A stretch of 64,000 nt of DNA from a candidate division FCPU426 bacterium (GTDB lineage: Bacteria; Oederibacteriota; PGYV01; Palsa-1178): contig CAWIXE010000001.1 in NCBI GenBank assembly GCA_963840035.1, positions 640,001 through 704,000 on the forward strand, written 5' to 3'. The position numbers and the translations under genes are program-made. The notes under the pieces were generated by a model that worked only from the letters and a program-made list of their open reading frames with translations, had not been told where the DNA came from and did no database searches. Position 1 is the stretch's first letter, and each line of letters opens with the position of its first letter. Positions 23,026 to 33,400 of the stretch are shown here, piece after piece.

Positions 23026-23103
23026 CGGGCGAGCCACCGGCTCGCCCCTACGAGAACAGGGCGGTTTGTATTGTCTTCGTAGGGGCGAGCCGGTGGCTCG
23101 CCC
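23026..23103. repeat. REP pair GTAGGGGCGAGCCGGTGGCTCGCCC
   Basis: Two inverted copies. Confidence 0.85.
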
Positions 23104-23116
23104 GGTATTTGTTTTC

Positions 23117-24424
23117 GTAGTCGCAGGCCTTCGGTTCACCGGCCTGCGTCTAGTTACGGCATTGATAGACGCAAACCGACGACAGTCCACCCACCCGGCG
23201 CGCGCACCCCGATGAAGCGAAGGGGTGCGACTACCATCGTTAAACAGTCTGAGTTGGTATTTGTAGTCGCAGGCCTTCGGTTCACCGGCCTGCGCCTACA
23301 TGAGGTATTGATAGACGCAAACCGACGACAGTCCACCCACCCGGCGCGCGCACCCCGATGAAGCGAAGGGGTGCGACTACCATCGTTAAACAGTCTGAGT
23401 TGGTATTTGTAGTCGCAGGCCTTCGGTTCACCGGCCTGCGTCTAGTTACGGCATTGATAGACGCAAACCGACGGACAGTCCACCCACCCGGCGCGCGCAC
23501 CCCGATGAAGCGAAGGGGTGCGACTACCATCGTTAAACAGTCTGAGTTGGTATTTGTAGTCGCAGGCCTTCGGTTCACCGGCCTGCGTCTAGTTACGGCA
23601 TTGATAGACGCAAACCGACGACAGTCCACCCACCCGGCGCGCGCACCCCGATGAAGCGAAGGGGTGCGACTACCATCGTTAAACAGTCTGAGTTGGTATT
23701 TGTAGTCGCAGGCCTTCGATCCACCGGCCTGCGCCTACATGAGGTATTGATAGACGCAAACCGACGACAGTCCACCCACCCGGCGCGCGCACCCCGATGA
23801 AGCGAAGGGGTGCGACTACCATCGTTAAACAGTCTGAGTTGGTATTTGTAGTCGCAGGCCTTCGATCCACCGGCCTGCGTCTAGTTACGGCATTGATAGA
23901 CGCAAACCGACGACAGTCCACCCACCCGGCGCGCGCACCCCGATGAAGCGAAGGGGTGCGACTACCATCGTTAAACAGTCTGAGTTGGTATTTGTAGTCG
24001 CAGGCCTTCGGTTCACCGGCCTGCGTCTAGTTACGGCATTGATAGACGCAAACCGACGACAGTCCACCCACCCGGCGCGCGCACCCCGATGAAGCGAAGG
24101 GGTGCGACTACCATCGTTAAACAGTCTGAGTTGGTATTTGTAGTCGCAGGCCTTCGATCCACCGGCCTGCGCCTACATGAGGTATTGATAGACGCAAACC
24201 GACGACAGTTCCCCCACCCGGCGTGTGCACCCCGATGAAGCGAAGGGGTGCGACTACCATCGTTAAACAGTCTGAGTTGGTATTTGTAGTCGCAGGCCTT
24301 CGGTTCACCGGCCTGCGTCTAGTTACGGCATTGATAGACGCAAACCGACGACAGTCCACCCACCCGGCGCGCGCACCCCGATGAAGCGAAGGGGTGCGAC
24401 TACCATCGTTTAACAGTCTGAGTT
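23117..24424. repeat. Tandem array of 9 x 146-bp REP-doublet (BIME-like) units
   Basis: Units start at 23117, 23263, 23409, 23556, 23702, 23848, 23994, 24140, 24286; each has GTAGTCGCAGGCC..GGCCTGCG and an inverted GTAGTCGCACCCC..GGGGTGCG. Confidence 0.97.
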
Positions 24425-25708: not shown

Positions 25709-25840
25709 GCACAATATATAGCGTAAACAAAGGGTTTAATGCAACTAAACATACTATATATATGAAAAAATATCCGTTGACAATATTGGCTGCATACCAT
25801 ATATTGTGGACAAGCGGAAAAAAAATACTACATATACGGT
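25709..25840 (+). promoter_or_regulatory. NrdR boxes and promoter of nrdD
   Basis: GCACAATATATAGCGT (25709), ATACCATATATTGTGG (25794), ATACTACATATACGGT (25825; 31 bp from previous box); TTGACA 25777 / TATATT 25800. Confidence 0.7.
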
Positions 25841-25910: not shown

Positions 25911-27953
25911 ATGAACAAAGTTGGCTATATCAGGAAGCGCGACGGCCGCATTGACGCATTTGACTTAAACAAAATAACAGAGGCTATTTTCAAGGCATTC
26001 AAGGCAAACAATAACTATGAGAAAGACAAGGCTGACAAGATATCCGAGCAGGTATCCTCCATCCTAAACGTAATCTATAAGGATGGCAAAGTGCCTTCCG
26101 TAGAAAACGTCCAGGACCTCGTAGAAACCACCCTCATTAACAACGGTCTGACTAACATCGCGAAATCATACATCCTATACCGTGACCAGCACGCAAAGAT
26201 GAGGGACGTAAAAAACCTCCTTAATGATTCCACCACCTTAATCGACGATTATATAAGGATGATAGACTGGCGCATAAAAGAAAATTCAAACATGTCTTAC
26301 TCGCTCCAGGGTTTAAACAACCACGTATCGTCGATTGTCACATCCATGTACTGGCTTAATAAGATCTACACGCCTGAAGTCAAGCAGGCGCACACTGACG
26401 GTTCGCTGCACCTTCATGACCTCGGGCTGCTTTCCGTTTACTGCTGCGGCTGGGACTTAAAGGACCTTTTATTCCGCGGCTTCGGAGGCGTGGAAGGGAA
26501 GATAGAATCAGCGCCGCCCGCGCATTTTGAGTCCGCGCTCGGCCAGATAGTGAATTTCTTTTACACGCTCCAGGGAGAGGCAGCCGGAGCGCAGGCGTTC
26601 GCGAACTTTGACACGCTGCTCGCGCCGTTTATCCGCTACAACCAGCTTCCCTTTGAGGACGTAAAACGCGCCATGAGGCGTTTCATATTTAACATGAACA
26701 TCCCGACCAGGGTAGGATTCCAGACTCCTTTTACCAACATCACCATGGACCTTACAGTCCCGGCAAACATGAAGGACGAAGCCGTTATAATCGGCGGCGA
26801 GATACAGGACTCCACATACGGCGAATACCAGGAAGAAATGTACCTGATAAACCGCGCCTTTGCCGAAGTCATGCTTGAAGGCGACGCCAAGGGAAGGATT
26901 TTCACCTTCCCGATACCCACATACAACATCACAAAAGATTTTGACTGGGACAATAAAGAAATGGAACCGGTATGGGAAATGACCGCAAAGTACGGCATAC
27001 CGTATTTCGCGAACTTTGTTAATTCCGACATGAAGCCTGAGGACGCGCGCTCTATGTGCTGCAGGCTCCGTCTTGACAACAGGGAACTGCGCAAACGCGG
27101 CGGCGGGCTTTTCGGATCGAACCCTCTTACAGGCTCCATAGGAGTGGTCACCATAAACATGCCGAGGCTCGGATTTAAACATAAGGGAAATAAAGAAGCT
27201 TTTTACGCGGAGCTGACATATCTGATGGACATCGCGAAAGAATCGCTTGAGATAAAAAGAAAAATGCTTGAAAAACTCACGGATCAGGGACTTTACCCGT
27301 ACTCCAAGCACTACCTCGGAGGAATCAGGGAAAGGGAAGGCGTGTACTGGAAGAATCATTTCTCCACCGTGGGCCTGATCGGAATGAATGAAGCATGCAT
27401 TAATTATATGGATAAGGACATAACCACGGAAGACGGCACTGCTTTTACAAAAGAAGTGCTCGACTTCATGAGGAACCGCCTCATAGATTATCAGAACGAG
27501 ACAGGAGACCTGTACAACCTCGAAGCCACGCCCGGCGAAGGCACTTCATACAGGCTGGCCAAGATTGACAAGGAAAAATATCCGGAGATAAAGGCCATGG
27601 GCGCCAAGACCCCGTACTACACGAACTCCACACAGCTGCCCGTGTACCACACGCGCGACGTATTCCGCGCGCTCGAGCACCAGGACCCGCTCCAGACAAG
27701 GTATACAGGAGGCACGGTATTCCACATATTCCTGGGCGAGAGGCTTACATCCATTGAAGCCACAAAGAACCTTGTCAGGGGAGTATCGGAAAGGTTCCAC
27801 CTGCCGTATTATTCCATCACGCCGACATTCTCGGTGTGCCCGGTGCACGGCTACATAGCGGGAGAGCATTTTGACTGCCCAGTGTGCAGGACCGACAAGG
27901 AAGAGGAACTGAAAAAAGAGATAGAAAAGATAGAAGCGCAGCTGACCTGCTAA
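25911..27953 (+). CDS. nrdD: Class III anaerobic ribonucleoside-triphosphate reductase large subunit (ATP cone; lacks glycyl-radical loop)
   Basis: IRKRDGR..F ATP cone, HLHDL..YCCG, SMCCRL, EATPGEG, YYTNS, YTGGTVFH, CPVHG...CPVC. Confidence 0.95.
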   Translation: MNKVGYIRKRDGRIDAFDLNKITEAIFKAFKANNNYEKDKADKISEQVSSILNVIYKDGKVPSVENVQDLVETTLINNGLTNIAKSYILYRDQHAKMRDVKNLLNDSTTLIDDYIRMIDWRIKENSNMSYSLQGLNNHVSSIVTSMYWLNKIYTPEVKQAHTDGSLHLHDLGLLSVYCCGWDLKDLLFRGFGGVEGKIESAPPAHFESALGQIVNFFYTLQGEAAGAQAFANFDTLLAPFIRYNQLPFEDVKRAMRRFIFNMNIPTRVGFQTPFTNITMDLTVPANMKDEAVIIGGEIQDSTYGEYQEEMYLINRAFAEVMLEGDAKGRIFTFPIPTYNITKDFDWDNKEMEPVWEMTAKYGIPYFANFVNSDMKPEDARSMCCRLRLDNRELRKRGGGLFGSNPLTGSIGVVTINMPRLGFKHKGNKEAFYAELTYLMDIAKESLEIKRKMLEKLTDQGLYPYSKHYLGGIREREGVYWKNHFSTVGLIGMNEACINYMDKDITTEDGTAFTKEVLDFMRNRLIDYQNETGDLYNLEATPGEGTSYRLAKIDKEKYPEIKAMGAKTPYYTNSTQLPVYHTRDVFRALEHQDPLQTRYTGGTVFHIFLGERLTSIEATKNLVRGVSERFHLPYYSITPTFSVCPVHGYIAGEHFDCPVCRTDKEEELKKEIEKIEAQLTC

Positions 27954-28026
27954 AGAGCGGCAAATAATCGGCCAAAGCCGATAAAAGATAAAATTAAAAA
28001 ATCATATTTTTACGAGGAGGCAAAAG

Positions 28027-28242
28027 ATGGCGGAAAGATCAGAACTTATGATGAAGCTCGAGGAATTAAAGGGCGAGCTGGCAGGAGTCAAAGGAACGGA
28101 ATGCGAAGTGTACTCGAGGATAGTGGGTTACTTCAGGCCGGTCAAGCAGTGGAACAACGGCAAGCAGGAAGAGTACGCCGACAGGGTAACATTCGAAGCA
28201 AAAGTACCGGAAGAAGCAACTGCAGCTGTCAGGATACAGTAA
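28027..28242 (+). CDS. Stand-alone NrdD glycyl-radical domain
   Basis: CEVYSRIVGYFRPVKQWNNGKQEEY; own RBS GAGGAGG. Confidence 0.9.
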   Translation: MAERSELMMKLEELKGELAGVKGTECEVYSRIVGYFRPVKQWNNGKQEEYADRVTFEAKVPEEATAAVRIQ

Positions 28243-28377: not shown

Positions 28378-29079
28378 ATGCGTATTAACGGCTTTGAAGG
28401 GGTTTCCTTAATAGATTTTCCGGGAACGGTCTGTTCCATAGTCTACACGTCGCCGTGCAATTTCAAATGCCCGTTCTGCCACAACCCCGACCTCATAAGC
28501 ATAAATGAAGACACAATCGGCGAACCGCAGGTAATATCGGAGATAGCCGAGAGGGCCGGTTTTATTGCCGGAGTTACAATTACCGGGGGAGAGCCTCTTT
28601 TACAGGAAGACATCGGGCTGTTCCTGAAAATATTAAAGGACATGAAGCTTAAGGTTAAGCTTGACACCAACGGCTACATGCCTGACAAACTAAAATCCCT
28701 CATGGATAAAAAGCTGGTCGATTACGTAGCCATGGATATAAAGTCATCCCCTGACAAATATCAGTTTGCCTGCGGCATTAAGACAGACTTAAGCAGGATA
28801 AAAGAATCAATAGCGCTTATTAAAGAAAGCGGCATAGACTATGAATTCAGGACCACGGCAGTGCCAAACCTGGTGGAACCGGGCGATATCCCGAAAATAG
28901 GCGAACTTATATCTGGCGCGAAGATGTTTTCGCTCCAGCAGTTCCGCAACACCAACACATATGACGAACTATACAAAAAGATAACCCCGTACACCGAGGC
29001 AAAACTCGAGGAATTCGCCGAGGAGCTAAGGCTCTACGCGGACAAAGTAAGGGTCCTAAACACCGCCGCCCTGGCGTAA
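28378..29079 (+). CDS. nrdG: Anaerobic RNR activating radical-SAM protein
   Basis: [34 protein letters not shown]. Confidence 0.92.
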
Positions 29080-29183: not shown

Positions 29184-30368
29184 ATGGAAATAAAAGAAGG
29201 GCTTTTTACCTCGGAATCCGTAACAGCTGGGCATCCTGACAAGGTGGCGGACCAGATATCCGACGCCGTGCTGGATTATATTTACGCCAATGACCCGATG
29301 GGCCGCGTGGCATGCGAAACACTTCTTGCCAAGGAACTCGTGGTTGTAGCCGGAGAAATCACCACAAAGACAAAACTTGACCACGCCATTATTGAAAAAA
29401 TAGTAAGGAAGACATTAAAACAGATAGGATATACCACGCCGGAATCCGGAATCGGAGCCGACACATGCAAAATCATAACGTCTGTCTCAAAACAGTCGCC
29501 TGACATAGCCATGGGAGTCGACCGCGAAGGCGCCGGGGACCAGGGTATGATGTTCGGTTACGCTTCAAACGAGACCAAGGAATTCATGCCGCTTCCGATA
29601 ATTCTCGCCCACAGGCTCGTGGAAAAACTCCACGAAGTCAGGGAGAAAAAGCTTGTGCCTTACTTAAGGCCGGACGGCAAGTCGCAGGTATCAGTGGAAT
29701 ATAAAAAAGGAAAGCCCGTCGGCATCACTGCCATAGTGCTTTCGACCCAGCATGACGAGACAGTATCAGACGACCACTTCAGGATAGAGCAGGATATGAA
29801 AAGGCTCGTCATAGACAAAGTAATCCCTAAAAATCTTATCACATCAAAGACAAAAATATACGTCAACCCGACAGGCAAGTTCGAAGTCGGGGGCCCGATG
29901 GGCGACACAGGGGTAACAGGAAGAAAGATCATCGTCGATACATACGGCGGGATGGGCAGGCACGGCGGCGGAGCGTTCTCAGGCAAGGATCCGTCGAAGG
30001 TTGACCGCTCGGCGGCGTACATGGCGCGCTACATAGCCAAAAACGTAGTGGCAGCGAAGCTCGCGGACAAATGCGAAGTACAGCTTTCCTACGCCATCGG
30101 CGTGGCAGACCCGACATCGGTCATGGTAAACACCTTCGGAACAGGAAAATTTCCTGAGGCAAAAATATCAGCGGCCGTTTCGGCCGTATTTAACATGACA
30201 CCGCGCGGAATCATGGAGACCTTGAACCTCCGCAGGCCCATATACCAGAAATCAGCGGCTTACGGGCACTTCGGCAGGACAGAAAAAGAATTCACATGGG
30301 AACACATTGATAAAGTCGCGGCACTTAAGAAAGCCATGAAGGCGAAGGTTAAGAAAACAATAATATAA
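29184..30368 (+). CDS. metK: S-adenosylmethionine synthetase
   Basis: [26 protein letters not shown]. Confidence 0.97.
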
Positions 30369-30417
30369 CTTGCAGGGACAGCGCTCCCGCACTGTCCGCA
30401 CAGTTAATGGAGGCAAG

Positions 30418-31680
30418 ATGAAAAAAGCATACGACATAAAAGATATAAAGCTGGCTGCGGAAGGCAAAAGGAAGATCGAGTGGGCTGAAAAGAATATGCC
30501 TGTCCTGCGCCTTATAAGGGAAGATTTTAAGAAGAACAAGCCGCTTAAAGGGCAGACACTTGTGGCCTGCCTTCACATCACCACTGAAACGGCAAACCTT
30601 CTCTGGACGCTCAAAGAGGGCGGCGCGAATGTCATAGCATGCGCGTCAAACCCGCTTTCCACACAGGATGATACGGCAGCGGCGCTGGTTAAATACCACA
30701 ACATCCCGGTGTACGCCATAAAGGGAGAGTCAAACAAAGTTTATTACTCGCACATACTCGCGGCGCTTGAACACAAGCCCACGCTTACCATGGACGACGG
30801 GGCAGACACAGTCTCAGTAATTCACAAGACCCACAGGCACCTAATAGACGGAATCATCGGCGGCACTGAAGAGACCACCACCGGCGTAATCAGGCTCAAA
30901 GCCATGGAAAAAGAAGGCGTGCTCGAGTACCCGATAATCGCGGTAAACGAGGCAATGACAAAACATTTCTTTGACAACCGCTACGGCACAGGCCAGTCGA
31001 CACTGGACGGCATAATCCGCGCGACTAACGTGCTGCTCGCGGGACTGAATTTTGTTGTCGCCGGCTATGGCTGGTGCGGCAAGGGCCTGGCGATGAGAGC
31101 CTCGGGAATGGGCGCGAACGTAATCGTCACGGAGATAGACCCGATAAAGGCGCTTGAGGCAAAAATGGACGGATACCTGGTAATGCCGATGATAGAAGCC
31201 GCGGCTATAGGGAACGTATTCTGCACGGTAACCGGCGACATTAACGTAATCAGGAAAGAGCACTTCCTGAAAATGAAAGATAACGCCATAGTATGCAACT
31301 CCGGCCACTTCAACGTGGAAATCGACCTTCCGGCCCTTGAAAAGATTTCAGTCTCCAAAAGGGAAGTAAGAAACCTGGTCATGGAATACAAGCTGAAAAA
31401 TGGAAACAGGATATGTGTGCTTGCCGACGGCAGGCTAGTTAACCTGGCAACTGCCGAAGGGCATCCGGCCATGGTAATGGACATGTCCTTTGCCAACCAG
31501 GCGCAGGGCGCGGAGTACATGGTGAAGAACCACCTCTCGCTGGAGAAAAAAGTTTATAACGTCCCCGAGGATATCGACAGGAAGATAGCGGAGATAAAGC
31601 TGAAATCCATGGGAGTAAAGCTGGAAAAACTGACTGCCGAGCAGGTAAAGTACTTAAACAGCTGGCAGGAAGGGACATAA
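30418..31680 (+). CDS. ahcY: Adenosylhomocysteinase
   Basis: [44 protein letters not shown]. Confidence 0.97.
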
Positions 31681-32999: not shown

Positions 33000-33179
33000 T
33001 GTACTGTTAACATGTTCTGTTTACAGTCTTATGCTTGTCATTGCGAGGAGGCGTTTTTGTTACTTGCCGACGAAGCAATCTCGCTGTTCCAGAAGGAGAA
33101 AACGAGATTGCTTCGTCGCCACAAGCCAACTGCGGCTCCTCGCAATGACAAACTGTAAACACATCTTCTTAACAGTGCA
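33000..33179. mobile_element. ~180-bp MITE-like element with GTCATTGCGAG...GAAGCAATCTC palindromic core
   Basis: Ends TGTACTGTTAA/TTAACAGTGCA; ATTAATT on both sides; second inverted copy at 44849-45027. Confidence 0.7.
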
Positions 33180-33400
33180 ATTAATTGACAATTGACAATA
33201 GTCAATCGTTAATTACCTGCCCTTGACAACACGCCCTAAAAGCCCTATAATTAGCCTGTTTGTTATTGACGCGGATATGACCAGATAAGTTACTGGAGAC
33301 AGGAAAGGCAATAATAACGCCAGGCCGGTATTATCTATAAAAAAACAAACCCAAAACACAATATTTTTGGATTATTTAAGTGCATTGAAGGAGGTTTATC

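Follow-up and report, generated by a model that had tools for sequence, protein, structure and literature searches.

A stretch of 64,000 nucleotides from a candidate division FCPU426 bacterium (assembly GCA_963840035.1, contig CAWIXE010000001.1, positions 640,001 to 704,000; called here the window, in whose numbering coordinates are given) carries what we read as a two-gene class III ribonucleotide reductase (RNR), consisting of a 680-residue NrdD body and a separate 71-residue chain with the predicted glycyl-radical loop. We put at about 0.78 the probability that the two products assemble into one enzyme through an antiparallel coiled coil, with a radical chemistry assumed to be that of the family. 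The literature presents class III RNR as a one-chain enzyme, destroyed by oxygen through cleavage at the radical glycine (PMC3019208). This glycine lies on a loop after the Zn ribbon (Gly621 in T. maritima, Gly580 in phage T4 and Gly711 in P. copri; PMC4493059, PMC11226230); the loop enters the barrel and must swing out for activation (PMC4493059), and the radical domain is highly mobile in the one-chain P. copri NrdD (PMC11226230).

The features of the two genes are the following.

25911..27953, + strand: nrdD body, 680 amino acids (aa), comprising an ATP-cone, the catalytic barrel, the Zn site and a docking helix at the C-terminus
27051..27065, + strand: SMCCR finger-loop motif (Cys383, Cys384; residues 381-385), invariant in 20 relatives
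27837..27887, + strand: Zn-ribbon site C643-H646...C656-C659, invariant in 20/20 aligned bodies
27888..27950, + strand: heptad helix at the C-terminus of the body, with core L667, I671, I674 and L678 and predicted salt-bridge residues K663, E670 and E675
27954..28026, + strand: AT-rich intergenic spacer of 73 nucleotides (nt), with a ribosome-binding site, GAGGAGG, at 28014-28020, six bases ahead of the ATG
28027..28242, + strand: small gene, 71 aa, with docking helix, a strand that completes the Zn ribbon, predicted glycyl-radical loop and short C-terminal helix
28036..28089, + strand: heptad helix at the N-terminus of the small chain, with core L7, L11, L14, L18 and V21 and predicted salt-bridge residues K10, K15 and E17

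Two separate genes for a proposed two-chain enzyme

An earlier note, made from the sequence alone, had described an NrdD that stops after its Zn site with a heptad-like tail and no RxxGY loop, followed after a 73-bp gap by a small open reading frame (ORF) with its own GAGGAGG site, a heptad-like helix at its N-terminus and the radical loop; all of these elements are present. The C-terminus of the body reads CPVH...CPVC-RTDKEEELKKEIEKIEAQLTC and is followed by a TAA stop, and a sequence scan found no RxxG[YF] motif within its 680 aa. The small ORF, which is in a different reading frame from nrdD, starts with MAERSELMMKLEELKGEL and carries its RIVGY loop within CEVYSRIVGYFRPV, the codon of Gly34 lying at 28126-28128. 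PF03477 (ATP-cone) matches the body at residues 6-95, NF006126 and TIGR02487 score above cut-off, and the body covers positions 1-531 of PF13597 (E 8.5e-181). The two proteins tile PF13597 without overlap (1-531 and 531-562), and TIGR02487 is divided likewise, with 1-549 on the body and 550-580 on the small protein. The loop CEVYSRIVGYFRPV aligns weakly (E 0.19) with residues 611-643 of T. maritima NrdD (4COI), which hold the Gly621 loop, and the small protein has no match among solved chains with an E below that value; nor do the PHROGs contain a family for it at 1e-6. The SMCCR motif is of the double-cysteine finger-loop type of class III RNR (PMC9669993).

The ATP-cone, barrel, MCCR loop, Zn ribbon and RxxGY loop, together with an adjacent nrdG in the usual order, are shared with the one-chain NrdD/NrdG systems of T. 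maritima (4COI/4U3E), P. copri (8P23) and phage T4 (1H78). The differences are that the radical loop is on a gene of its own and that two heptad helices stand in place of a four-residue turn. On sequence grounds the locus is that of a class III RNR in every respect tested save the one-chain layout.

The survey of homologous loci that the earlier note had suggested found the body and small ORFs separate and adjacent in 23 of the 24 genomes of the class searched, and fused in none; the 24th (G023; 96% complete, approximately 120 contigs) has the small gene only. One genome (G022) contains two 93%-identical strain variants, each of them split. Across 22 class genomes the gap between the two genes ranges from 14 to 143 nt and falls in all three frames (9, 8 and 5 genomes), and the spacers have nothing in common in sequence save the ribosome-binding site, a Shine–Dalgarno-like sequence preceding every small ORF. 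No Rfam family matched within the locus, and no intein family matched the body or the small chain. Because the break is conserved while the spacers are unshared and occur in every frame, sequencing error, an intron and a programmed frameshift are excluded. The ratio of non-synonymous to synonymous polymorphism (pN/pS), obtained from five family members and uncorrected, was 0.05 in the loop region; it reached 0.27 in the helix of the small chain and 0.19 in the helix and tail of the body, and both new ends are therefore under purifying selection at the protein level. The genes for the body and the 71-aa chain are thus truly separate, conserved class-wide and under purifying selection. The genome, which is 98% complete, contains no class III locus but this one.

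Predicted docking of the small chain on the body

In fused relatives a turn of four residues links the last Zn cysteine to the EVYSR strand (112 of the 116 parsed); here its place is taken by approximately 21 residues at the end of the body and 25 at the start of the small chain. In 36 distinct helix-bearing pairs, body positions +8, +12, +15 and +19 past the last cysteine are hydrophobic in all 144 cells, compared with 32 of 540 at other positions, and small-chain positions 7, 11, 14, 18 and 21 in 177 of 180 cells, compared with 57 of 504; a conserved a/d hydrophobic heptad is therefore present on both helices. A search with the small protein yielded 189 proteins of 39-125 aa, and a four-position hydrophobic core was found in 114 of the 118 that were parsed.

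An antiparallel pairing is favoured because the Zn cysteine and the incoming strand must share one end. The antiparallel register that sets I671 against L14 and I674 against L11 predicts the salt bridges E675-K15, E670-K10 and K663-E17, and the residues at these positions covary in charge. Among the 36 pairs, body +16 and small-chain 15 carry opposite charges in 34 (23 K/E and 11 E/K) and like charges in none; for +4 with 17 and for +11 with 10, the counts are 27 opposite and none alike. When the 270 variable column pairs are ranked by charge correlation, these three come out as the most negative, and all of them are among the five pairs predicted by this single register. Complementary e-e' and g-g' charges thus change together across the helix pair, in events too few for significance: on a tree of 27 of the 36 pairs, the body and small-chain positions need equal numbers of changes (3/3, 2/2 and 2/2), and 5/5 independent starred-branch pairs agree. 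The covariation set leaves out ten split pairs with no helix or a different Zn motif, and the motif also missed one locus, L117. Helices in a fused form were found in none of the parsed fused loci and in 0 of 15 longer matches, the latter being weak evidence.

The two-chain structure model that the earlier note had called for gave a score of 0.85 for the body with the small chain, against 0.00 for the best of three controls. Of 157 solved complexes, 116 attained the score mark by which we judge it, as did 2 of 215 mismatched pairs; this yardstick is rough here, since our model was given our own alignments. The runs had at least 91% of their contacts in common, and the pLDDT (predicted local distance difference test score) of the partner was 76-77. 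The best contacts join small-chain residues 24-30 to body residues 639-643 and 652-656, completing the Zn ribbon. The predicted interface also includes body residues 660, 663-664, 667-668, 670-671, 674-675 and 677-678 and small-chain residues 4, 7-8, 10-11, 14-15, 17-18 and 21, at heptad spacing; this helix part, which involves both helix faces and all six salt-bridge residues, has no solved counterpart. An AlphaFold model of the small chain alone (mean pLDDT 64) was confident only in the helix at residues 2-19, which would fit a chain that folds on binding the body.

Conservation, the purifying selection and the complex model accordingly lend good support to the two-chain RNR proposed in the earlier note. 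Its suggestion of coiled-coil docking, a prediction in nature, is likewise well supported by the conserved heptads, by compensatory charge swaps in one antiparallel register and by the modelled interface. In the arrangement that we propose, small-chain residues 24-30 would pair as a strand with the Zn ribbon of the body, residues 30-37 would enter the barrel and residues 43-59 would pack on its surface, while L667, I671, I674 and L678 would pair with L18, L14, L11 and L7, flanked by the three salt bridges. From the chemistry of the family, NrdG would place the radical on Gly34, from where it would move to a finger-loop cysteine of the body. The small chain would thus supply the radical loop in trans, kept in place both by its added strand and by the coiled coil, which would tether the mobile loop in the role played in one-chain enzymes by the peptide bond that has been lost here. 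An oxygen cut would then strike an 8-kDa chain rather than one of 86 kDa, sparing the 78-kDa body.

Several points weigh against this reading. The model may take the Zn-ribbon pairing, and with it its pass, from solved one-chain NrdD, and it was fed our own alignments, so that it is not independent of the covariation. Helix–helix pairs are not listed by the model, so the orientation rests on the charge pattern, and the catalytic Cys383/384 lie outside the confident contacts. The charge swaps amount to few events, for which a sign test cannot reach 0.05; kinship inflates charge correlations, and a pair at +0.82 was also seen. Two of the three charge pairs were first spotted in a 20-row subset of the same data, the third having emerged from the full scan of column pairs, and the remaining two in-register pairs give no support, +9/22 at the helix end being like-charged in 25 rows. 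Many split NrdDs have no helices at all, which are consequently not required for a split in general. Finally, a class II NrdJ is present in the same genome, so that nothing obliges the class III enzyme to be active.

Origins of the split and the possible fate of the radical chain

The 110 loci taken around relatives of the body, among which some are the same genome twice, comprised 74 fused forms, 31 split forms and five cut by contig ends. Splits without helices but with the same break occur in Nanoarchaeia, Anaerolineaceae, Dojkabacteria and other families of the phylum, and in two cultured bacteria, Cupriavidus necator H16 (pHG1) and Sulfuricurvum kujiense (pSULKU01), which like our locus have a body, a small RxxGY gene and nrdG. 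In these two the small chains have no N-terminal heptad helix and the body tails are shorter; RefSeq gives them as two genes, and in C. necator the small ORF lies between nrdD and nrdG. Split and fused states change six times on a tree of 100 rows (reduced from 163 through 114 by thinning Saccharibacteria and dropping duplicates and bodies below 450 aa). A single clade of all split forms was rejected by the approximately unbiased (AU) test with p 1.7e-10 on 30 chosen rows, so splits arose more than once. The helix-bearing forms of the class make up one starred clade of 28 rows on the 100-row tree. A second helix-docked nrdD-small-nrdG cassette, in loci L168 and L175, has an unrelated body (AU p 0.002 for L168), and this second helix-bearing pair therefore arose separately or through transfer of the module. 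Judged from the sequences compared, the NrdD split is widespread and of more than one origin, and the helices are a lineage-specific addition.

The helix-less split nrdD is annotated in RefSeq and apparently undescribed. We found no description of a two-gene NrdD in the literature searched, a search whose scope stopped short of supplements and most subscription papers. In their available portions, four papers describe NrdD without a two-gene form (PMC4390871, PMC9531940, PMC2795772 and PMC2864759), and the last of these gives C. metallidurans NrdDG under two locus tags that are not consecutive, a single number being left out. Other RNRs are encoded in two genes. The class II NrdJa/NrdJb differs in class and cut site (PMC9669993), as does the class I NrdA-a/NrdA-b of phage Aeh1, whose large subunit owes its split to a homing endonuclease gene, of which there is none here (PMC3045599). 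The new, oppositely charged terminal tails of Aeh1 NrdA are essential for activity (Crona et al., PMC3045599), but in the available text they are not reported as a coiled coil and are dispensable for the a/b heterodimer (PMC3045599). Unlike the Aeh1 and NrdJ splits, the cut here isolates exactly the radical-carrying segment, and unlike RNR splits made by introns, inteins or homing endonucleases it has unconserved spacers of 14-143 nt with no such element at the break.

There is also a likeness in idea to GrcA/YfiD of E. coli and Y06I of T4, autonomous glycyl-radical cofactors that serve as spare parts for pyruvate formate-lyase (PFL); they too are small, separate glycyl-radical-loop proteins for the barrel of another chain, with copies in phages. 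The small chain differs from them in matching PF13597 rather than PF01228 (the PFL-type Gly_radical family), for which there was no match in the genome. Whereas GrcA rescues a cleaved one-chain enzyme, the body here never has a loop of its own, which would make the small chain an obligate subunit, and whereas the N-terminus of YfiD is disordered (PMC8683613), in the small chain this end forms a conserved helix that is predicted to dock. The available text of a 2026 review gives formate lyases as the only class of glycyl-radical enzymes with identified spare parts (PMC13450708), and spare parts for non-PFL members have been called speculation (PMC8683613).

By analogy with GrcA/YfiD, it is plausible that the radical domain is replaceable. 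A built-in spare part, in which the split is kept because oxygen destroys the small chain only and fresh chains re-arm the surviving bodies, is an explanation that we rate at somewhat below even odds; as a corollary, phages and mobile elements would carry the small gene in order to keep or commandeer the dNTP (deoxynucleoside triphosphate) synthesis of the host. It extends the best explanation, a two-chain enzyme, and excludes nothing in it. Consistent with such a role, a genome of the same family (G002) has, besides its resident split operon, a second, lone helix-bearing small gene in lower-GC DNA among ParA/ParB, coupling-protein, relaxase and RepA genes, and in a 63-kb phage (G041, which CheckV estimates to be 100% complete) a helix-bearing small gene, with no body, lies between the terminase and portal genes. 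Among the 16 viral loci found, 13 have a short separate ORF and three a fused gene. Whole-record searches of 10 viral sequences that have a lone small ORF found no NrdD body in nine; three of these are estimated complete, and the other six are incomplete. The lone small copies retain the IILLV core, T4 Y06I offers a precedent for PFL (PMC8683613), and the repeated origin of splits points the same way. On the other side, a cut at Gly34 would leave residues 1-33, that is the helix and strand, docked, so that repair would need exchange of this stub, which the helix may slow. The mobile copy in G002 fits the charge code of its host at two of three pairs and clashes at one, the + strand shows no separate promoter-like site for the small gene in the window, and, as the sole radical loop of the enzyme, this gene is no back-up for a one-chain enzyme in the manner of GrcA. 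We would offer only tentatively, and as rather doubtful, the fullest form of this idea: a detachable radical cartridge, evolved more than once, held in this lineage by a charge-coded antiparallel zipper, sacrificed to oxygen and replaced with no need to resynthesise the 78-kDa body, with zipper-matched copies on phages and mobile elements that re-arm or seize the host enzyme.

The chromosomal pairs are explained equally well by neutral fission, in which the turn after the Zn ribbon tolerates a break, the radical domain being a mobile module, and the split drifted to fixation, the helices later stabilising the pair, with no role in repair. The same site is broken in unrelated lineages whether or not helices are present, strand complementation prevails among the most confident contacts of the model, and in phage Aeh1 NrdA the new terminal tails turned essential after the split (PMC3045599). 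Such a history gives no reason for phages and a mobile element to carry lone small genes, and no fused member was found among 23 class genomes; we consider it possible, though rather less likely than not.

Whether spare parts exist beyond PFL has been posed as a question in print (PMC8683613; PMC13450708), and a natural two-chain form would open it to direct test: at 8 kDa, the chain with the radical could be made and activated separately, and the charge pairs of the docking helices are ready swap controls. If the two-chain reading is true, a radical loop can work in trans, and if the small chain is also replaced, spare parts would be known for the first time outside the formate lyases, here integrated into the enzyme as an obligate subunit. 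The two-gene form would explain many tiny database entries, on chromosomes, plasmids and phages, named 'anaerobic ribonucleoside-triphosphate reductase', and could reopen older genetics of C. necator NrdD, where the same small gene went unremarked.

Some relatives depart from these layouts. The L168/L175 cassette adjoins genes for an HslV-like peptidase and a NinI-like phosphatase, and is possibly phage DNA. In several helix-less splits (L058, L103-L105, L148 and L171) the body keeps only one cysteine of the second Zn pair (for example CPYEH, CPHH); judging by sequence, the fourth Zn ligand may come from a cysteine near the start of the small chain. In L073, which is fused, a long insert separates the two cysteines of that second pair, and in the split pair L105 (G034) 515 nt separate the body from the small gene. 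A distant fused NrdD with approximately 27% identity, in L107 and L108 (G035 and G029), has a long C-terminal extension with CxxC, possibly a redoxin domain.

Lone radical loops take other forms as well. In G023, the class genome with a small gene only and a member of the same order, that gene (L237; contig C72, 9259-11901) bears the helix and an RVVGF variant of the loop and lies between a TonB receptor gene and an adenosylcobalamin (AdoCbl) riboswitch with metE. No NrdD body, and no NrdG above cut-off, was found in this 96% complete genome; R17 of the small chain fits the E that its genus has at body +4, so a body may have escaped assembly or have been lost recently. In the ANMV-1 virus (L242; KP703175, 3680-4114), and in P0123, an NrdD radical loop stands behind an unrelated cysteine-rich N-terminal part, in a viral protein of 144 aa. 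Plasmid pALVIN01 of the cultured bacterium Allochromatium vinosum has a lone 69-aa radical-loop gene (L243, 2962-3171), with no body within 3 kb.

Remaining alternatives and the surroundings of the locus

A quite different assignment would place the radical at G647 of the body, in CPVHGY, and make the small ORF an accessory. Siedow et al. reportedly assigned, in 1999, the radical of C. necator H16 NrdD to Gly650, the equivalent of G647. The C. necator body indeed has G650 in CPTHGY and no RxxGY, and G647 is invariant among aligned bodies. However, the HGY glycine is also found in 70 of 74 and in 48 of 50 fused relatives that bear the RxxGY loop, so it appears to belong to a structural turn of the Zn ribbon. 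Moreover, the radical segment of solved class III enzymes, which follows the Zn ribbon, is the segment found here on the small ORF, and C. necator too has that ORF. We consider a radical at G647 very unlikely.

A continuous polypeptide (through assembly error, which the earlier note had named as a danger to its reading, intron, frameshift, ribosomal hop or trans-splicing) or a decaying pseudogene might be entertained, as phage nrdD genes are often interrupted by introns or inteins (PMC12880540, PMC3653736) and in the one DNA run listed, a distant one (share 0.09), no contig spans this junction, but the identical break in 23 genomes, the variable and unshared gaps in all frames, the Shine–Dalgarno-like sequences, the lack of Rfam and intein matches at the locus and the purifying selection on both new ends leave this scarcely credible and largely refuted.

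Returning to the two-gene locus, further features around it are as follows.

25710..25723, + strand: NrdR-box-like palindrome upstream of the operon, one mismatch to the pattern
25777..25805, + strand: putative sigma-70-like promoter, TTGACA-17-TATATT, 11/12 consensus, overlapping a weaker NrdR-like box
28378..29079, + strand: nrdG, radical-SAM (S-adenosylmethionine) activase of the NrdG2 type, TIGR02495 198 bits, cut-off 131

The pattern used for the palindrome is what we take to be the NrdR-box consensus. Weak further matches lie at 25793-25808 and 25826-25839, and the genome encodes NrdR. At up to three mismatches the pattern has 12 matches in the window against 17 expected, so the case for the box consists of its position and best score only. 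A SAM synthetase gene and an S-adenosylhomocysteine (SAH)-hydrolase-like gene (29184-31680) directly follow nrdG, whose product consumes SAM. At 23035-24424 there are at least nine repeats of 146 nt, built of palindromes starting with GTAG and flanked by a gene for an ECF (extracytoplasmic function)-sigma-like protein and an HD-domain gene; we presume the array to be akin to REP/BIME (repetitive extragenic palindrome/bacterial interspersed mosaic) elements. Similar palindromic DNA may occur near 33000-33200.

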